Shown here piece by piece: positions 42,674-50,559 of a DNA stretch of 64,000 bases. The stretch covers positions 1-64,000 of the forward strand of contig JBBRPR010000008.1 of the NCBI GenBank assembly GCA_038227875.1. The letters run 5' to 3'. Origin of the DNA: Planctomycetota bacterium. GTDB lineage: Bacteria; Planctomycetota; SZUA-567; H5-PLA8. Numbering within the stretch: the first letter of the stretch is position 1; each line of letters starts with the position of its first letter. Both the position numbers and the translations under genes were made by a program. The notes under the pieces were generated by a model. The model was given only the letters and a program-made list of their open reading frames with translations, searched no databases and had not been told where the DNA came from.

Positions 42674-43750
42674 ATGGAGCTAAAAAACGATCCTCAGGCC
42701 TTTTACAAGGCCATCCAAGGTTCGCTGCGCGGATTGGCGGGCAGGAATTTGCCCCCGCTGCTGAAACGCTGGCGGAACACGCGCAGCCACGACGTGGCCA
42801 TGCCGAAAGTCAACGCGGACAAATTGCGCTTTCTCGGGCGACTGGGGCTGCTGGATTCCGGCAGCGAAGAGCCGGAGCTCAACCGTGCGTACGCGGAATT
42901 ACTGGAACGCGTGTCGCGGGTTAGCGGCGATGCTCCGGGGATTGCTGACGGCTGGATCGAACTGTTCGCCAATGGTGAATACGGCGTGCTGGACGCCGGC
43001 GTCTGCGGCGTGGAGCCGCAGTGCGGAAAGTGTCCGCTCAGCAGTGGCTGCCGCTACCTTGCCTCGGGTGCGACCGACGCACGGTCTTTTGGTCAGGACC
43101 TGGCGGTCGAACTGCTGAGCGCGGCCGGATCGCAGCCTGCGGATTTGCGATCGGCGGACATGCTGGCGTTCGCGCTTTCCGGCGAACGCGCGGGCGGGGC
43201 GGACATGGCGCGCGCTGAAGCGGCGCTGAAAGCATCGGGCGGCTTGCGTGGGTTGTTTTCGATGAGCGGCGAGGAGTTGCGCAAGCTGGGCTTCGCTGAT
43301 CCGGCCATCGCGCGGCTGCAGGCGATCGCGGAGCTCTGCCGACATTGGGCGGAAGAGATCAAGACGCGCGGGAAAGTGTTCAGACAGGGCAAGGATTTCT
43401 ACGACCATTTCCACCTGCGGCTGCGGGATATGAAGAAGGAAGTGTTCATTGTAGTGATGATCGACCAGAAAAATCGCCTCATTAAAGAGGAGACCGTGAG
43501 CGAAGGCAGCCTGACGGAGACGCTGGTCCATCCGCGCGAAGTGTTTACCAACGCGGTGCGCGAACGGGCGGCGGCGATCGCGGTCGTGCACAACCATCCG
43601 TCGGGGGATCCGGCGCCCAGCACGCAAGACAAGAACATCACGCGCCGCTTGAAATCCGCGGCGACGCTGCTGGGCATCCGTCTGCTGGACCATGTTATCG
43701 TCGGTGACGGGAAATATTTCAGCTTTGTCGAAGAAGACATCATGGAGTAG
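42674..43750 (+). CDS. radC: RadC/JAB-domain protein with N-terminal Cys4 extension
   Basis: KEVF, GSL.ETLVHPREVF, HNHPSGDP.PS.QD, LLDHVIVG. Confidence 0.9.
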   Translation: MELKNDPQAFYKAIQGSLRGLAGRNLPPLLKRWRNTRSHDVAMPKVNADKLRFLGRLGLLDSGSEEPELNRAYAELLERVSRVSGDAPGIADGWIELFANGEYGVLDAGVCGVEPQCGKCPLSSGCRYLASGATDARSFGQDLAVELLSAAGSQPADLRSADMLAFALSGERAGGADMARAEAALKASGGLRGLFSMSGEELRKLGFADPAIARLQAIAELCRHWAEEIKTRGKVFRQGKDFYDHFHLRLRDMKKEVFIVVMIDQKNRLIKEETVSEGSLTETLVHPREVFTNAVRERAAAIAVVHNHPSGDPAPSTQDKNITRRLKSAATLLGIRLLDHVIVGDGKYFSFVEEDIME

Positions 43751-43763
43751 CAAACAGCACGCT

Positions 43764-44486
43764 ATGGTGAGCGCCAACGACAGAGTGACGGAACTGGACA
43801 GGGCCGAATTGGCCGAACCCGATCCGCAGCGGCCGGACCGCCGTTGGTTTGTCTGGTTCCTGAGCGCATTGGCCTTGAATGTGATGGGTATTTTCTGGCT
43901 GGCGGTGCGCGCAGACAGCCCGGAGTCGCTCCGCAACGTGCTGGACGTGCTGATGCAGAGCGCCATCGGTATTGCGGTGGCGGTGGTCGCGTTTCGCGCA
44001 CTGACGTATTTTCCGTACCGCACCAGCGACTTGATGATCATGGTGCTGGTATTGTCCCTGGCGATGAAGCTCACGCTGAGCGTGCTGCAACGCTTCGCGG
44101 CGATCGGCCTGCTGCATCATGGCTTCGCGTCAGGCGACCATCTCGGCGAATTGGTTCAGACCTGCATGATCACTGGCAGCATTCTGATCGGCGGTGGTGC
44201 GTTTGCGCTGCGCACCTGTCAGAAACTAGAGATCCAGCGCCCGCTCCCGCGCGCGGTCGCGCTGGTTGCGGGAATGCTGTCACTCCCTGCCGCGGCGGGG
44301 ACGCTGGTGTTTGGCTTGCTGATTTTCGTGGAAGTCATCAGAGCCAAGCCGGATTACTCGTACACGCCCATGTTCGCGGCGCTGTGGCTGGGCTCAATCG
44401 GGCTGTCGCTGGTGAACGTAACGAATATGGGGCGGATGCTGATGTTGCGGGCGGTGGTTTCGGCGAAGGATCATTTGGCCAGGTAG
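43764..44486 (+). CDS. Hypothetical integral membrane protein
   Basis: About six hydrophobic helices. Confidence 0.7.
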   Translation: MVSANDRVTELDRAELAEPDPQRPDRRWFVWFLSALALNVMGIFWLAVRADSPESLRNVLDVLMQSAIGIAVAVVAFRALTYFPYRTSDLMIMVLVLSLAMKLTLSVLQRFAAIGLLHHGFASGDHLGELVQTCMITGSILIGGGAFALRTCQKLEIQRPLPRAVALVAGMLSLPAAAGTLVFGLLIFVEVIRAKPDYSYTPMFAALWLGSIGLSLVNVTNMGRMLMLRAVVSAKDHLAR

Positions 44487-44507
44487 AGCGACGCAGGCGG
44501 GTGTGCG

Positions 44508-45674
44508 CTAACCCATAATTGCGGTAAGGTGCCAGGAAACAGTGTGCGCTTCGGTGGGGTCGGGAATTTCCAGTTTGTCGATGAGGCGCTCAATTACGCC
44601 GCTCGGGACTTTTGTCGGGCGTTGAGTATTGCGGCGGAGTAATTCCTGATAGGGCGTTTCGAGATAGACGATGCGAATGCGCGCCTTGTAGCCAGCGACC
44701 AGGCGAATGAGTTGGCTGCGCATCTGGCGGGAAATGTTAGTGGCGTTCCAGACGAACGACCGCGCGGCGCGTGCGTGTTCGCGGGCCAATTCTTTCGCGC
44801 GAGCGACGACGGGTCCCTGTTCGTCTTCGGGCCTTATGTTCATCTCGGTGCGAAGTAGATCGAGCGAGATTAATTCGAAGCCGGGTAGATTTTCGCGAAT
44901 CCAGTGGTCCTTGCCGGCGGCGGGCAGGCCGGAGATCAGCACGACGTCGAATTTGCAGTCGTCGTACGCGGCGTACTCCGGCGACGCGTCTTCTTTTTGA
45001 AAATAGACGAAGCGGCTGTGATCCGACGCAAACGTTCGGGGTGCGGTGAGGCATCGGTTCTCCGCGCAGAAATCTTCGAAGAGCGCGATGCGTTCCAGTA
45101 GTTCATTTTTGTCCACGCATTCGCGACCGAGGACGTCGGCTTTCGCGACGAGCGCCAGCCATTGGCACGACACGGTTTGACTCGCTTCAATCACGGCGCG
45201 CTGCGGCGATGTTTTCTCCATGAAAAGCAGGGGCAGACCGTGGTGCCGCACCGTGGCGCAGATGGCTTCACGGACGGACAGCGGCGCCATGTCTTCTCGA
45301 TACATCAGTCCTCGGACTATTTGGGTGCCGTGGCGCGCGTGGCCTTTGGAGGTGATTGTGCCGTCGTCTTGCGTTTGCGTGCAGTGCGGCTTGCCGATGT
45401 CATGAAAGAGCGCCGCCGCCAGAACGATCGAGCGTTCAACGGGCGGGAGCGTGCGCCAATCCTCCAATGATGTGAGCGCTGTGCAAACCATTTGGGTGTG
45501 GATGTGAACGTCGCCTTCCGCGTGCCAGCGCGGGTCTTGAGGGCAGTCTCGCAACGCGGAGATGCATTCCAACTGACTGTCAATGCAGTCCCAGTCCAGA
45601 ATTCCCGATTCGGGCTTCGCGAGCAAGAATGGGACAGTCCATTGGGCTTGAGCGGCTTGGCGATAGAGGCTCAT
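44508..45674 (-). CDS. HD-domain phosphoesterase fused to P-loop polynucleotide kinase (HD-Pnk-like)
   Basis: WHAEGDVHIHT, LFHDIGK, GHA, RHH, KAD; GLPAAGKD, WNATN, RRN..R. Confidence 0.85.
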   Translation of the reverse strand: MSLYRQAAQAQWTVPFLLAKPESGILDWDCIDSQLECISALRDCPQDPRWHAEGDVHIHTQMVCTALTSLEDWRTLPPVERSIVLAAALFHDIGKPHCTQTQDDGTITSKGHARHGTQIVRGLMYREDMAPLSVREAICATVRHHGLPLLFMEKTSPQRAVIEASQTVSCQWLALVAKADVLGRECVDKNELLERIALFEDFCAENRCLTAPRTFASDHSRFVYFQKEDASPEYAAYDDCKFDVVLISGLPAAGKDHWIRENLPGFELISLDLLRTEMNIRPEDEQGPVVARAKELAREHARAARSFVWNATNISRQMRSQLIRLVAGYKARIRIVYLETPYQELLRRNTQRPTKVPSGVIERLIDKLEIPDPTEAHTVSWHLTAIMG

Positions 45675-46477
45675 GAGAAACCGCCTTCACTTTCAAAAAT
45701 TTTGACGTCTGACCGCAATCGATTCGGAATGATCGGGCGATTGAGCCAGTGGCCTTCGGCATTGAGCACCGCTGTCAGAAATCCGCGCCGGATAAATTTG
45801 TAGCGATCTTGCACGATACCGTCCTCTTCGATCTTTACGTACAGTCCTTCCATGGTGGTGCTGGGATCTGTTTCGCGTAACGCGCGATCCACGTCTAGTG
45901 CTCGTTCGGTACAATCGCTGCGCAGTTGCTCCAGATGTGAGTCCGAAATGAAGGCGGAATGTCCCAGCAGAGCGGTAATCGCCTCTAACGATTTGATTTT
46001 CCCTGACGACAGTACGTGGACTGACGCGATCGGCAGGCCGGTGAGCAGTTGCTGACGGCGCGGAGTGCTCAGGAACGTTTCGTTTTCGACGTCCAGGATG
46101 TCGAACTCCATGAAGTAGTGTGTCAACTGGTCGTAGAAGACCGTGTGCTTGGCGTATAGCCATTCGCCGTACATGACGTGTTTGCTGCCGAGGCGATCGA
46201 ATAGCGCATCGCGATGAATCTGCGCCCACTGCTTGAAGAGCGTGAAGTGCTTCTCGCGTGCGCCACCCGTCAGAAAATGTCCGCGGCTTTGCAGTAGCAA
46301 TTCGCCGCCGGCACCGAAACTGACGGCGGAGTTTGCTCCGTCGACCTTTTCTTCGACAACGAGGTGGCGGCCGGCCAGTTCTGCAAACGGAACGCTCTCC
46401 ATGTCCTCATCGCCGGGCTGCTGGCGCGAACCGCGGAGATGCCGTGTGCGGGGGTATTTGTAGAGTCGTTGATTCAT
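45671..46477 (-). CDS. ATP-dependent RNA ligase family protein
   Basis: KYPRT.HL, motif I EEKVDGAN, QSR, III YGEW, IIIa FMEFDI, IV EGLYVK, V RYKF. Confidence 0.88.
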   Translation of the reverse strand: MNQRLYKYPRTRHLRGSRQQPGDEDMESVPFAELAGRHLVVEEKVDGANSAVSFGAGGELLLQSRGHFLTGGAREKHFTLFKQWAQIHRDALFDRLGSKHVMYGEWLYAKHTVFYDQLTHYFMEFDILDVENETFLSTPRRQQLLTGLPIASVHVLSSGKIKSLEAITALLGHSAFISDSHLEQLRSDCTERALDVDRALRETDPSTTMEGLYVKIEEDGIVQDRYKFIRRGFLTAVLNAEGHWLNRPIIPNRLRSDVKIFESEGGFS

Positions 46478-47157
46478 GACGTCACCCGGGCGACAGCGAT
46501 CAGATGGTTGAGTACATGGTCAAACGTGATCGACGATGCACCTGCGTCCTTGAACAATATTTCCAGCGTTTCCTGATTGAACAAATGAATGTGTTCTGGA
46601 TTGTTGTCCTCTTTTGAGGGCACGGAAACAATCACAAAGCGGCTGGCGACACGCATGGCCTCGCGGAGCGCGGCCTGGGCATCGGCGATATGCTCCAGAA
46701 CTTCCAGAAACGTGACGACGTCGAAGGCGCGGTCGGCGAAGGTCATGAGCGTTGCATCCATGACCTGCGCCGAGAGCCGTTCGATGCCACCGTCGCGAAT
46801 GGCCAGCAGATCATCGACTCGCCGCTCTTGCTGGTCGATGCAGGTGACGGGTAACTCCGGAAAGCAGTCCAGCAGAGGCCACAGAAACGCGCCGCGTCCG
46901 CTGCCGATGTCCAGCAGGTCCGATGGCGCGATGCCTTTCAACGCGCCGAGCACTCGATTGACGCGCCTCAGTCCCATCGTTCGCTTGAATTTGTGGAGAC
47001 GCAGGTCGGCCTGACGGCCGAGAGTCAGGATCTCCTCCAATTCCAGCGCGGTGAGGTCGTTCAACGGTTTGGCGCGGTAGTCATTGGGCAGAACGACGGC
47101 AGTCTTGCCGCGGATGAATGCGACGGCAATGCGCGTGAAGTAGTTGTCGCTATCCAT
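46474..47157 (-). CDS. Class I SAM-dependent methyltransferase
   Basis: LLDIGSGRG, CID, MDAT, FDVVTFLEVLEHI, SVP...PEH. Confidence 0.9.
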   Translation of the reverse strand: MDSDNYFTRIAVAFIRGKTAVVLPNDYRAKPLNDLTALELEEILTLGRQADLRLHKFKRTMGLRRVNRVLGALKGIAPSDLLDIGSGRGAFLWPLLDCFPELPVTCIDQQERRVDDLLAIRDGGIERLSAQVMDATLMTFADRAFDVVTFLEVLEHIADAQAALREAMRVASRFVIVSVPSKEDNNPEHIHLFNQETLEILFKDAGASSITFDHVLNHLIAVARVTS

Positions 47158-47863
47158 GGCCCATCCCCCTGATCTCAGCGCCGTACTGCGCCTTGAGCGC
47201 TTGGATCTCTTTGGAATTCAACTGTCTCTTTCCCACGGCGTAGGCGTGGTCGCCGTAGTATTGAGCAAAAGTGGCGTACGTCTTGTGAATGCAGTAGCAC
47301 TTTAAAACCACGTCCCACACCAGGGCTCGATCGTTGGGCAGTGGTTTGAGCTGAACCTCGAACCAGATGCCGTTCAATTTTCGATACTGCGTCAGCGCAT
47401 CGACGGTGAGGTATTCCTTGGGCGCCGCGACTTTGCGGCGCCTGTAATTGGGATTCTCGCGCAGCATTCGAGTTTCGGGATCCACATAGAATCGCTGCCA
47501 GATTCGCCGTCCGCTTTGATCCAGATAGATTCCTTCGCGTTCGAAGACGTTGATGCAGACGTACTGGATGACGTGTTGCCAGATGTGTAGCTGCACGACC
47601 GAGTTCAAATTGATGCGCTCGCGGATTTCGGAGTTCACATCGTCCCAGTGCCGGCCCAGGTTGGAGCGAAGAAAGCGGCGCAGGGGCGCGAGGTTTTCGT
47701 TCAGCCATTTTGGATTGCGGCTCCAATGCCGTTGCATGCCCTCCTTCGTGGGCCATTCGTCCATGGGCATACGTTGCAACGCGCGTAAACTTCCCTTGGG
47801 TGTTTTGTATCCGCCGCCGCCGCGCGGCCGTTCCACGATGATTTTGGCCATGTCTTTACGCAT
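47150..47863 (-). CDS. Basic Arg/Trp-rich hypothetical protein
   Basis: AAGGA RBS; 8-nt overlap with the methyltransferase; no recognisable catalytic motif. Confidence 0.8.
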   Translation of the reverse strand: MRKDMAKIIVERPRGGGGYKTPKGSLRALQRMPMDEWPTKEGMQRHWSRNPKWLNENLAPLRRFLRSNLGRHWDDVNSEIRERINLNSVVQLHIWQHVIQYVCINVFEREGIYLDQSGRRIWQRFYVDPETRMLRENPNYRRRKVAAPKEYLTVDALTQYRKLNGIWFEVQLKPLPNDRALVWDVVLKCYCIHKTYATFAQYYGDHAYAVGKRQLNSKEIQALKAQYGAEIRGMGHG

Positions 47864-48294
47864 GGATTTTCCTTACGAAGGCATAATTTCTCCCCGTCAA
47901 AAACGCGCAACGCGTTTTGAATGTGTGACGTCGGCTCATGCGTGGAGCGGCGCGAGAACGCGCGCTCAAACGATAGAGCACATCATCGGAATTGAATTGG
48001 GCAGGGGGCTCGGACGGAACAGATTTGGAGGCGTGTCAATGAAGACACTTGGGCATAGCGTAAGACAACGTTTACTTCGCGATGCTGGATCCCAATCTCG
48101 TCGGGGCACCTATAGTCGTTGGTCGCGTCATGGACTGATCCTTTCAGGCGGCGGCGGTCAGAGCCGAAGCCAGTGGGACAATTAACCCTGCGGATTGTGG
48201 AGTGTCAAGAGTTCAGAGAACAAAACTCGCCGCAGGATCGCGGCGAGGTTTTGTTCGGTTCAACTTTCAACTTTCTCGACTCAACTCACCGCCG

Positions 48295-48957
48295 TTACGG
48301 CAGTTCCTCGCCGGGCGAGATTTTTTTCTTTCTCGCTTCGATCATTTCGCGGGCGGTTTTGTATTGGGGGACGGGTTCGGCGGGGTTTTCTTTCTTGATC
48401 ACCCGGACGCAGTAGGCCGGCCACTGGAAACCATCAACACGGAGGTTCTCTTCCATGTGGTCGATGGCGTAATCGCCGCGCGCCAGGCGCGCCTTGAGTT
48501 CATCGATGGCGAAGATGCGTTTGCCGGGGCCGGTGAGCTTGTCGCGGAGCGCGGAGAAGAAACCGTGGCTTGCGGGTTCGAAGAGCACCAGTTTACCGTC
48601 GGGAACCAGCACGCGGTGGAATTCGGCGAGCACGGTCCACGGCGGACGAATTGAAAAAAGTGCTTCGAACGACAGTACGGCATCGAAGCTGTGTCTGATA
48701 AAGGGCAGTCGCGTTGCTCTTCCTGCGACAATTTGTATCGAATTGGACACTCCCGATTTTCCGGCTTGCGTCAGCCGTTCAGGCGACGAATCGAGCATGG
48801 TCACGGGGTGTCCGGCGATCAACGGCAGCACGCGTTTGATGCATTCGGCGCCGTGCGGGCCGGGCGTAATCAGCAGGATGCGCTCGCTGCCTTGCAGTCG
48901 GGCGACCCGCATTGCAACGTCGACTACAGTTTCTGCCATCAACACTCCGTCCGACAC
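48295..48957 (-). CDS. Methyltransferase type 11-like protein
   Basis: MLDSS, ATRLPF..SFDAV, LAEFHRVLVPDGKLV; atypical motif I. Confidence 0.75.
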   Translation of the reverse strand: MSDGVLMAETVVDVAMRVARLQGSERILLITPGPHGAECIKRVLPLIAGHPVTMLDSSPERLTQAGKSGVSNSIQIVAGRATRLPFIRHSFDAVLSFEALFSIRPPWTVLAEFHRVLVPDGKLVLFEPASHGFFSALRDKLTGPGKRIFAIDELKARLARGDYAIDHMEENLRVDGFQWPAYCVRVIKKENPAEPVPQYKTAREMIEARKKKISPGEELP

Positions 48958-49098
48958 GCGAAAGCTCCTTTCTGAACGGTTGAAGGATAGCCAAAGGACC
49001 CCACAGCGCCAGAGCGTTCATCACGACATGCGATTTAAATGCCAAAAATTCACGTGTCGGCTAACATTATCAGCGTTTGAACCGGCAAGGAGTGCTGT

Positions 49099-50559
49099 GT
49101 GCTCAGAAAAGTGCTGATTGTCGTCGCGATTCTCACCACGATTGCGTTCGTCGTGACGCGCTTGCGCATGCGCAGTCAAGCGGCTGTAGTTGCCGATGCG
49201 GGAGATGGCGAGCAACTCGCGGTGCCGAAACCGAAACCGGCCGTGCCGCGGACTTCCGGACCGAAGCCGCCGAACGTGGTGTTGATCGTGATCGACACGC
49301 TGCGGCGCGATCATCTCGGTTGTTACGGGTATTCGAAGCCAACGACGCCGCAGATCGACAAGCTCGCGGCTCAAGGCGTGCGCGCCGAGGAAATGATCGC
49401 CAGTTGCAGCTGGACGATTCCCAGCCTGATGAGCATCTTCACGAGTCTGCCGCCGTCGCTGCATCAGGCGACGTTTCGCACGCGCTTCGGAGCGGGGATT
49501 ACGACTCTGGCGGACGAACTGCACGGGCAGGGCTTTCAGACTGTGGGATATGCGTCGAATCCGTTCGCGAAAACGGCGAACGGATTTTCGCTCGGTTTTG
49601 ACGAGTACACGGAGTTCGACGGACTGATGGCTGAGATGCATGGCGAACGCAAGCCGCCGCCGATCTGGGAAGTGCGGTCAAGCGCGACGGTGACGCGGCT
49701 GGCGTCGAAGTGGCTCGACGGACGCAACGCGGCGCAGCCGTTTTTTCTGTTCGCGCTCTATTTTGATCCACATGCCGACTATGTCCCGGTTCCTCCAAAC
49801 GACACCTTGTTCGATCCGGATTACACGGGAACGGTGAAAGGGAATCTGCTCTCGATGCCCGATCCGAAGCTCAACGCGCGTGATCGGGCGCATGTGGAGG
49901 CATTGTACGACGGCGAGATCCGCGACACGGACGGTTGCGTCGGCGAGTTGATCGCAAAGATCGACGCGCTGGGTCTGGCCAACGACACGATCGTGGTCGT
50001 GACGTCGGATCACGGAGAGGAATTTTGGAATCACGGTCAAACGTTGCACGGGCACACACTCTACGACGAACTGCTGCGCGTGCCATTTGTCGTGCGCTGG
50101 CCGGGGCATGTGGAAGCGGGGAAAGCGTTGAGCGGACAGATCAGCAGCATGAGCATTATGCCGACGGTGATTGAGGCGGTGGGCGGGCGAATTCCCGTGC
50201 AATGCCAGAGTCCCAGCGTGTGGAATTTCCTGACCGGCAAAGCGCCACTGGAAGCGCGGCCGGTGTGTGCGGAGACCGACTATCAAGGGATCAACCTGCG
50301 CATGATCCGCACGCCGACGCAGAAGATCGTCTACGACGTGGAGAAGGGGACGAAGTCGATTTTCGATCTGGTGCAGGATCCTAAAGAGCAAACGAATCTT
50401 GCCGATAAACCGCCGATATGGGTAGCGGAGTTGAACGGAGAGTTCGACGTGTGGGCCAAGTCGGTCAACTCGATCCGGAGCACGATGGCGCCGGCGCGGG
50501 ATGCGGAGCTGGACGCCAAGACGCTGGAGCAGCTCAAACAGCTGGGATATGGGCAGTGA
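49099..50559 (+). CDS. Sulfatase / alkaline phosphatase superfamily protein
   Basis: PNVVLIVIDTLRRDH, WTIPS..S..T, DPH..Y, YDGEI, TSDHGEE, HG..LY. Confidence 0.9.
   Translation: MLRKVLIVVAILTTIAFVVTRLRMRSQAAVVADAGDGEQLAVPKPKPAVPRTSGPKPPNVVLIVIDTLRRDHLGCYGYSKPTTPQIDKLAAQGVRAEEMIASCSWTIPSLMSIFTSLPPSLHQATFRTRFGAGITTLADELHGQGFQTVGYASNPFAKTANGFSLGFDEYTEFDGLMAEMHGERKPPPIWEVRSSATVTRLASKWLDGRNAAQPFFLFALYFDPHADYVPVPPNDTLFDPDYTGTVKGNLLSMPDPKLNARDRAHVEALYDGEIRDTDGCVGELIAKIDALGLANDTIVVVTSDHGEEFWNHGQTLHGHTLYDELLRVPFVVRWPGHVEAGKALSGQISSMSIMPTVIEAVGGRIPVQCQSPSVWNFLTGKAPLEARPVCAETDYQGINLRMIRTPTQKIVYDVEKGTKSIFDLVQDPKEQTNLADKPPIWVAELNGEFDVWAKSVNSIRSTMAPARDAELDAKTLEQLKQLGYGQ

Follow-up and report, generated by a model that had tools for sequence, protein, structure and literature searches.

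What do the four genes at positions 44508 to 47863 of a Planctomycetota contig do, and do they belong to one system? They lie on the minus strand of the window, by which we mean the whole 64,000-nucleotide (nt) stretch of contig JBBRPR010000008.1 analyzed here, and they encode, in order of transcription, a basic protein of no known family (gene 1, or unk), a class I S-adenosylmethionine (SAM) methyltransferase (MT), an RNA ligase, and HD-Pnk, in which an HD phosphoesterase is fused to a polynucleotide kinase. A previous reading made from the sequence of the window alone (the sequence-only reading) had proposed that the four form one system that heals, seals, and protects broken RNA, with unk as an extra subunit. 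The reading that we favor, and consider fairly probable, is instead that of one operon with two parts, namely, a mobile repair triad (genes 2 to 4) and a local accessory (gene 1) that is coupled to it.

Genes 2 to 4 would make up a self-contained module that repairs broken nucleic acid ends, most likely those of RNA and probably those of tRNA. The HD domain of HD-Pnk would strip 2',3'-cyclic phosphates or 3'-phosphates, its kinase domain would phosphorylate 5'-OH ends, and the ligase would join 3'-OH and 5'-phosphate ends via a lysyl-AMP intermediate. MT would act physically with the ligase and modify the substrate end, most likely at the 2'-OH of the 3'-terminal ribose by metal-dependent, Hen1-like chemistry, and a junction methylated in this way would resist renewed cutting by transesterifying ribonucleases. 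Gene 1, coupled to the module in translation, would be a local addition drawn from a large family that accompanies the unrelated ligase RtcB and tRNA arrays; its product would most likely be a ligase-independent accessory that recognizes or presents damaged translation RNA, and not an obligate subunit of the module.

The ligase and HD-Pnk resemble a known type of pair

The four genes overlap by 8, 4, and 4 nt in the ORF (open reading frame) listing, and the junction sequences (unk/MT, ATGGATAG; MT/ligase, ATGA; ligase/HD-Pnk, ATGA) agree with the coordinates, so that the co-oriented, overlapping arrangement first described from sequence stands. The motif AAGGA lies 8 nt ahead of the first ATG of the quartet.

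The ligase matches Pfam family PF09414 (RNA_ligase) at an E value of 4e-31. In an alignment of 14 ligases (A3), the residues K44, D46, and G47 (EEKxDGxN; EEKVDGAN here), R65-G66, G104-E105-W106, F125-D126, E210-G211-Y213, and R225/K227 are invariant, and we take these to be covalent nucleotidyltransferase motifs I, Ia, III, IIIa, IV, and V. When the ligase profile was compared with solved structures, Rnl3 and Rnl5 ligases were matched weakly (E values of 6e-5 to 0.02). HD-Pnk matches the Pfam families HD (8e-9; residues 74 to 149) and AAA_33 kinase (1e-21; residues 244 to 370) and the NCBIfam model HDIG (1e-9), with a weak match to the bacterial Pnkp kinase model; an alignment of 13 sequences (A4) has as invariant residues H51, H91-D92, H112, and D180, the P-loop G249-L-P-x-x-G254-K255-D256, and S270-L-D272. 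MT matches the Pfam families Methyltransf_23, -11, -12, -25, and -31, with E values down to 9e-13. Pfam matches and motif conservation thus agree with the enzyme assignments of the sequence-only reading.

By architecture and Pfam families only, the locus can be assigned to the ligase/HD-Pnk pair of the Runella and Deinococcus type. The cluster of Runella slithyformis, as described by Munir et al. 2018 (PMC6097658), comprises Tpt1, MTase-HIT, ligase, and HD-Pnk; it resembles the window in that the ligase ORF lies directly upstream of the ORF for HD-Pnk, which it overlaps (here by 4 nt, ATGA), in that HD-Pnk consists of an N-terminal HD phosphoesterase and a C-terminal 5'-OH kinase, and in that a SAM methyltransferase is encoded just upstream. 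Unlike that cluster, the window has a standalone MT without HIT, no Tpt1, and the unrelated unk in first position, and MT overlaps the ligase gene by 4 nt where the published description gives a 152-nt spacer. The Deinococcus radiodurans operon of DR_B0100 (LigB/DdrP), DR_B0099 (PARG), and DR_B0098 (HD-Pnk), in the account of PMC6300522, likewise joins a ligase and HD-Pnk with a variable third gene and is patchy among relatives, but its third gene encodes a PARG/macro-type hydrolase instead of a methyltransferase, and its documented role is DNA damage resistance. The ligase/HD-Pnk pairing, including the neighboring methyltransferase in Runella, has been described (PMC6097658), and loci of this kind are therefore not new. 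Neither the triad nor the gene 1 family is characterized in the literature searched; Burroughs & Aravind 2016 and Munir & Shuman 2017 fall outside that literature and may already name one or the other. As far as checked, what appears to be new is that the gene 1 family is associated with RtcB, PrfH, Band7, and tRNA arrays and that a member has been recruited to the triad. Knowledge of the ligase/HD-Pnk pair goes back to 2017, and a methyltransferase dedicated to the ligase is a possible lead to what that ligase joins.

MT, ligase, and HD-Pnk are conserved together and look mobile

We scanned metagenomes with the MT alignment (A2) as an anchor; this gave 599 pattern matches, 435 of them encoding a relative, and we retained the 80 best loci. 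Neighbors were then counted by tblastn with the window proteins (E<=1e-5). The ligase follows MT in 66 of the 68 loci that have at least 300 nt downstream. Of the 44 loci with at least 1,200 nt downstream, 43 have the ligase and 39 have HD-Pnk, and the complete triad is found in 35 of the 37 loci with at least 2,000 nt downstream. HD-Pnk precedes MT in four loci (L124, L134, L140, and L149). When flanks were compared among the 36 loci with more than 1,500 nt upstream and the 26 with more than 1,500 nt downstream, no ORF family occurred beside the triad in more than three loci. These counts indicate a strongly conserved, widespread three-gene module, which can be regarded as the MT-bearing branch of the ligase/HD-Pnk pair. 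The earlier expectation that the genes would be found together elsewhere thus held for three of the four; gene 1 is taken up below.

Within the phylum, the ligase occurs in 18 of 401 genomes, the window's own included, and in none of the 8 genomes of the window's own family. Seven other genomes carry the triad (G023, G276, G214, G230, G181, G306, and G291, the last across two contigs), seven carry the ligase and HD-Pnk without MT (G118, G285, G315, G070, G223, G370, and G344, where a transposase separates the two), and three carry the ligase without an adjoining HD-Pnk (G362, G038, and G199). The orphan ligase of G362 is the best ligase match (59% identity) and has neither MT nor HD-Pnk beside it; its flanking ORFs look spurious (hhalign probability of <1%), and no HD-Pnk was found in that genome, which is 90% complete, with the window HD-Pnk as the query. 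The ligase is also encoded on plasmids of Pseudomonas, Variovorax, Ralstonia, and a cyanobacterium. A gene of the size of HD-Pnk follows it in the three plasmid records examined, with the annotation "AAA family ATPase" in Pseudomonas and Variovorax and hypothetical protein in the cyanobacterium; the ligase itself is annotated in these records as "RNA ligase family protein" or hypothetical protein. The spread of the ligase looks patchy and horizontally transferred, and the triad would count as horizontally mobile.

In a quick maximum-likelihood tree of 71 ligases, which leaves out rows that contain stops or have fewer than 236 aligned residues and for which the careful search is unfinished, all 63 MT-linked ligases and 4 without MT form one branch (99% by the Shimodaira-Hasegawa-like approximate likelihood ratio test, SH-aLRT), although sampling is biased in that the MT-positive rows were obtained through MT. 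The two includable f6 ligases (L110 and L111), L114, and L115 fall outside this branch. A survey for the MT-HIT form in 401 genomes from the phylum of L073 (a record labeled Chitinophaga; Bacteroidota) gave no A2 relatives at E<=1e-15 and shows nothing, because it had no positive control.

MT is tied to RNA ligases of two types

The MT family is large (3,303 proteins at E<=1e-10 among 4,241 candidates) and has a conserved N-terminal helical extension of ~60 amino acids (aa). Among the 26 members of A2, E152, H156, P180, and H218 are invariant, and E155 and H189 are at least 90% conserved. The AlphaFold2 (AF2) model of MT has a mean predicted local distance difference test score (pLDDT) of 93.8.

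Evidence that MT works with a ligase comes from fusion proteins as well as from gene order. At E<=1e-8 there are 55 longer MT relatives; 52 of them contain both a methyltransferase domain and PF09414, and 20 also contain T4_Rnl2_C. Domain order was examined in eight. In P0374 and P0375, MT is N-terminal and the ligase follows, and the ligase part of P0374 is 55% identical to the window ligase. In P0378, P0382, and P0404, a Rnl2-like ligase comes first and MT second; this ligase belongs to a lineage different from that of the window ligase family (hhalign probability of 2% against A3). The remaining three are P0424, in which MT is followed by an AAA_33 kinase in one protein, P0426, in which the ligase match after MT is merely partial, and P0377, which has MT domains alone after an N-terminal part without a Pfam match. 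Fusions in which MT precedes the ligase could in principle arise by read-through of the 4-nt overlap, but those in which the ligase precedes MT cannot, given their reversed order and different ligase. The latter represent an independent pairing of MT with a second ligase type. Given the two types of fusion, the MT family is therefore best described, on protein architecture, as an RNA ligase-associated methyltransferase, dedicated so tightly to the ligase that both are sometimes one protein. The Rnl2-like fusions number ~45 proteins of roughly 475 to 611 aa (P0378 to P0423) whose JGI annotation reads just "Rnl2 family RNA ligase"; in the three that were order checked, the PF09414 ligase is N-terminal to the MT family domain, and T4_Rnl2_C is present in two. 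A complex prediction for ligase plus MT scored 0.00, which speaks neither for nor against a complex.

Because of the adjacency of the genes and the MT-ligase fusions, we consider MT, ligase, and HD-Pnk to be a functional unit. To this extent the heal-seal-protect module of the sequence-only reading is upheld; its protective step, 2'-O-methylation, is a proposal that depends on how MT relates to Hen1.

MT is not a Hen1 but keeps the Hen1 metal-ligand positions

Several results speak against MT being a Hen1. The bacterial Hen1 model TIGR04074 gives MT 22 bits, compared with a cutoff of 340, and MT has no Pfam match to the N-terminal, ligase-activating Hen1_L domain (PF12623), which true Hen1 proteins encoded at two related loci (L110 and L112) match at 1e-110 or better. 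When the A2 profile was compared with solved structures, generic class I methyltransferases ranked above Hen1, whose chains took ranks 6, 7, 16, 22, and 23 (3jwi and 3jwg at ranks 6 and 7, E value of 1e-7); with the single MT sequence, Hen1 chains stood higher, at ranks 2, 3, 7, 10, and 11. The top Foldseek matches of the AF2 model are small-molecule O-methyltransferases, with no Hen1 among the top 50. Moreover, the E-x-x-E-H motif occurs in other O-methyltransferases, such as UbiG.

In the other direction, hhalign aligned A2 with the true Hen1 of L110 over 158 columns (95.6%; E value of 1e-8), compared with 70 columns (85.9%; 5e-6) for a control, the neighboring unrelated methyltransferase. 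In a joint alignment of MT with the two true Hen1 domains, and allowing for a 12-residue Hen1 insertion, MT residues E152, E155, H156, and H189 fall on the E-x-x-E-H and D-H positions of Hen1; the metal ligands of plant HEN1 are given as Glu796, Glu799, His800, and His860 (PMC10781085). On profile and alignment evidence, then, MT appears to lie outside the Hen1 family and not to be an orthologue, yet to keep the four metal-ligand positions of Hen1. Metal-dependent O-methylation of a terminal ribose by MT would be plausible, and heal-seal-protect is therefore a reasonable inference.

The resemblance extends to the wider architecture. Pnkp-Hen1 and Pnkp1-Rnl-Hen1, as described in PMC6097658 and PMC4411300, likewise combine a kinase, a 2',3'-phosphoesterase, an ATP-dependent ligase, and a ligase-tied SAM methyltransferase. 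Unlike those systems, the window has an HD phosphatase and not one of the calcineurin type, and a small PF09414 ligase and not a Pnkp ligase domain; its MT lacks Hen1_L and falls under the Hen1 cutoff, and true Hen1 is found beside the related pairs of L110 and L112.

Partners of related pairs favor RNA over DNA as the substrate

The genes that accompany related ligase/HD-Pnk pairs in the phylum bear on the substrate. In two Planctomycetota genomes (L108, 4685 to 10319; L109, 770 to 5253), an AAA_33 kinase, a Thg1-like 3'-5' polymerase, the ligase, HD-Pnk, and peptidyl-tRNA hydrolase PTH2 are encoded in a tight row, which looks like a candidate operon for tRNA 5'-end and break repair. At L110 (4225 to 10437) and L112 (4609 to 11253), a NIF-type phosphatase, DUF6193, the ligase, and HD-Pnk are followed by true Hen1 with Hen1_L; L110 alone also has DUF7638/DUF7639 and SEC-C, and in L112 a DDE transposase sits between ligase and HD-Pnk. 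An AlkB-like 2OG-Fe(II) oxygenase gene lies between ligase and HD-Pnk in L111 (6291 to 8687), and a macrodomain protein and a DUF3696 ATPase are found beside the pair of L115. That the partners are RNA enzymes favors RNA, particularly tRNA, as the substrate.

Two published findings weigh against the proposed repair of RNA ends. According to PMC6097658, the Runella ligase self-adenylylates and sealed none of the 3'-OH/5'-PO4 DNA or RNA substrates reported there, and according to PMC6300522, the Deinococcus ligase/PARG/HD-Pnk operon is induced by radiation and required for resistance to it, which speaks for DNA repair. An explanation modeled on the proposal for the Deinococcus ligB operon would make the module a DNA break repair system, in which HD-Pnk cleans the 3'-phosphate/5'-OH ends left by oxidative or radiation damage, the ligase seals DNA nicks, and the role of the methyltransferase is unrelated to RNA ends. 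It can draw on the sensitivity of the D. radiodurans HD-Pnk mutant to ionizing radiation (PMC6300522), on the description of Runella HD-Pnk as a DNA/RNA end-healing enzyme (PMC6097658), on a RadC gene on the other strand of the window 760 nt from the operon, and on a PARG gene that adjoins a relative of gene 1 in 1 of the 80 gene 1 loci described below (L018). It does not account well for the RNA- or tRNA-specific accessory genes of the phylum pairs (Thg1-like, PTH2, and Hen1), for the fusion of MT to Rnl2-type RNA ligases in other organisms, or for a gene 1 family that tracks RtcB and tRNA arrays, and we consider it clearly unlikely.

A further alternative keeps RNA as the substrate but dispenses with damage: the module would mature, circularize, or tag a specific cellular RNA, and MT would mark another atom, such as one of a 5'-phosphate or a base, or the 2'-OH of a different residue. 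This would fit the matches that MT ranks best in structure and profile searches, which are small-molecule and generic O- and N-methyltransferases. It would also fit the failure of the Runella-type ligase on the standard substrates of PMC6097658, which suggests that an unusual end is required, and the setting of the operon, where the genes are of an ordinary housekeeping kind and none nearby is a toxin, integrase, or defense gene. However, the patchy spread of the ligase and its plasmid copies fit a conflict or stress module better than housekeeping maturation, and MT keeps the four Hen1 metal-ligand positions; we regard a processing role as decidedly improbable and hold to repair of RNA ends.

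Gene 1 belongs to a large family that accompanies RtcB and tRNA arrays

Gene 1 encodes, as previously noted, a basic protein (isoelectric point [pI] of 9.9) without a family: it has no match in Pfam, NCBIfam, PADLOC, or PHROGs, and no credible Pfam match was obtained for 33 family members (best E value of 0.011, below every cutoff). The family is nonetheless large, with 292 relatives, all unnamed, and, in a 50%-clustered library, 5,102 representatives at E<=0.001 and 1,725 at E<=1e-30. Members are nearly all standalone proteins of about 230 to 270 aa, and the extensions of nine longer relatives contain no Pfam domain. Conserved motifs are an N-terminal MAKVIVERPR, KxLNENLAPLRRFL, HIWQH, YVDP, and KRQLN. 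In the AF2 model (pLDDT of 82.8), confidence is low for the first 50 residues, which are conserved, and the remainder consists of a helical part followed by a beta-sheet domain.

To place the family in context, we turned to a genome collection with one genome per species, in which 508 of 564 matched stretches encode a relative, and examined the best 80 loci. RtcB is encoded on the same strand in 21 of these, mostly within 100 nt, and Pfam confirmed all 10 RtcB ORFs scanned; with the same queries, the control sets gave RtcB in 1 of the 80 MT loci and in none of the 17 ligase loci. tRNA genes occur in 20 of the gene 1 loci, and their number (196 in 958 kb) compares with 6 in 371 kb and 2 in 213 kb of the control loci. 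In eleven loci, all Planctomycetota, 5 to 28 tRNA genes form a co-oriented array that either encloses unk or has it at one edge. Altogether, RtcB or a tRNA array is present in 30 of the 80 loci. Other neighbors are Band7 (8 loci), HNH (7), a DEAD-box helicase (7), and a PrfH-like RF-1 protein (5). Several gene orders recur, namely, Band7-unk-RtcB in Lysobacter-type loci, RtcB-unk in Betaproteobacteria, RtcB/PrfH/unk in Myxococcota, and unk-HNH-RtcB in Planctomycetota.

The family thus occurs within the gene orders Band7-unk-RtcB and RtcB-PrfH-unk and, inside tRNA arrays, unk-HNH-RtcB, all of which resemble RtcB systems. RtcB2-PrfH is described as a ribosome repair system (PMC9304027), and the long tRNA arrays of cyanobacteria, which have HNH and RtcB neighbors, as induced by translational stress (PMC8421152). 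The Planctomycetota arrays with gene 1 resemble these stress-induced "L-arrays." The window differs in having no RtcB, PrfH, Band7, HNH, or tRNA gene near gene 1, whose partner here is an ATP-dependent ligase module.

Co-oriented arrays of 18 to 28 tRNA genes were seen with the gene 1 family in Planctomycetota loci L007 (1 to 14747), L002, L006, L020, L039, and L050; L007 also encodes an HNH endonuclease, RtcB, and Band7. Five Band7-unk-RtcB loci have two abutting tRNA or tRNA-like genes ahead of Band7 (L021, 5317 to 5469; L029, 5341 to 5489; L032, 5327 to 5472; L040, 4636 to 4787; and L056, 5230 to 5376). For some of the tRNA-like genes, ARAGORN called a two-base "anticodon"; the titles of the records are Lysobacter, Lysobacteraceae, and Xanthomonadaceae. 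These may be the tRNA-like RNA linked to SPFH/Band-7 repair systems.

Some observations on the family stand apart from these contexts. VIA-align wide gave a best Z score of 5.4 for gene 1, and a likeness of residues 54 to 140 to winged-helix domains (Z scores of 4 to 5) was set aside as within the noise of the tool. ESM Atlas returned unnamed clusters only, with phage taxa commonest. The sole phage match by tblastn is a hypothetical protein of Myxococcus phage Mx1 (OR576727.2; 31% identity, E value of 2e-13); this copy (L117, 6001 to 6765) has hypothetical, uninformative neighbors and a macrodomain gene 2.2 kb upstream. Identity of gene 1 with TrcR, the cyanobacterial tRNA array repressor, was rejected, as TrcR is described as a small RHH (ribbon-helix-helix) protein restricted to cyanobacteria (PMC10272220).

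Gene 1 appears to be an attached accessory rather than a subunit

How, then, does gene 1 come to stand at the head of this operon? A number of results tell against a functional bond. Gene 1 was found in 0 of the 53 MT-anchored loci with room for it, and MT, ligase, or HD-Pnk of the window's kind in 0 of the 80 gene 1 loci; 50 of those 80 loci have neither RtcB nor a tRNA array within their flanks; and a Foldseek search of the Protein Data Bank (PDB) gave no match at E<=0.001 (best, 0.38), so that the fold gives no functional clue. Since gene 1 is absent from the MT loci and the module from the gene 1 loci, gene 1 does not belong to the triad as a subunit, and the four-part system of the sequence-only reading is not supported as a conserved one.

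The same absences favor the view that gene 1 is unrelated to the module, having landed upstream by chance and being merely cotranscribed. Set against this are the 8-nt stop/start overlap of gene 1 with MT, the presence of gene 1 as the only copy in a 9.3-Mb genome that has four RtcB loci elsewhere, and short contig pieces of ~97% identity that span the unk/MT junction in two runs (X3 and X4) of another study. The pieces are probably from the same population as the window, and they are therefore not independent support for the linkage. A chance landing is unlikely, if with a real chance of being right, because the gene 1 family has an independent link to a different class of RNA ligase and also to tRNA arrays. 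Gene 1 appears instead to be a portable accessory of RNA ligase and tRNA systems that this lineage has attached to an ATP-dependent module.

We also entertain a bolder proposal, which we rate as rather unlikely: whatever the ligase, the gene 1 family would be a core factor with which bacteria respond to damage of translation RNA, recognizing or presenting broken tRNA or damaged ribosomes and plugging into RtcB systems, tRNA "spare part" arrays, and ATP-dependent modules alike, and the methylase would provide what the Runella-type ligase lacks and so account for its failure to seal any standard substrate. A large family without a name or a model that follows two unrelated classes of RNA ligase as well as long tRNA arrays is a candidate for a shared part that is so far missing from the bacterial response to damaged tRNA and ribosomes.

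The four RtcB loci of the window's genome are on other contigs (C59, C102, C26, and C3), and two of them were matched in two pieces within one open frame.

Surroundings of the operon

The coordinates of the operon and its upstream features are collected in Table 1. The terminator-like hairpin may end the upstream methyltransferase gene and mark the upstream limit of the four-gene unit, but this is suggestive only: the hairpin is weak evidence alone because a scan of the region gave 8 such sites, compared with 6.4 expected from shuffles. The untranslated region between hairpin and gene 1 presumably holds the promoter and leader; no sigma-70-like promoter site was found in it. No Rfam family matched positions 43000 to 49500 at E<=1, and the window contains no tRNA gene. 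Eight runs were returned for the stretch, seven with part of it, and none held RNA data; the contig pieces are all DNA.

Table 1. Positions of the four genes and of upstream features in the window
Feature	Position	Strand	Description
Gene 1 (unk)	47150..47863	-	237-aa basic protein, pI 9.9, no known family (ORF)
Gene 2 (MT)	46474..47157	-	227-aa class I SAM methyltransferase (Pfam)
Gene 3 (ligase)	45671..46477	-	268-aa ATP-dependent polynucleotide (RNA) ligase, PF09414; predicted lysine nucleophile K44
Gene 4 (HD-Pnk)	44508..45674	-	388 aa; N-terminal HD phosphoesterase and C-terminal P-loop 5'-OH polynucleotide kinase (Pfam)
Untranslated region upstream of unk	47864..48225	-	362 nt (sequence)
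Terminator-like hairpin	48226..48247	-	9 pairs, 7 of them G-C; T tail TTTTGTTCTC; between the methyltransferase gene at 48295-48957 and the quartet

The neighboring genes are ordinary (lysyl-tRNA synthetase, FBPase, ROK, TPR, sulfatase, and Ser/Thr kinase), and no toxin, integrase, mobility, or defense gene was seen near the quartet. The methyltransferase gene at 48295 to 48957 (minus strand) encodes a second class I enzyme (Methyltransf_11; 1e-14) that is unrelated to MT and lies outside the unit. On the plus strand, the RadC/JAB protein is encoded at 42674 to 43750; its RadC match begins at residue 155, which leaves an N-terminal extension of ~150 residues, and the 3' end of its gene overlaps the start of a 264-aa ORF (43692 to 44486) without a family match and with a pI of 9.8.

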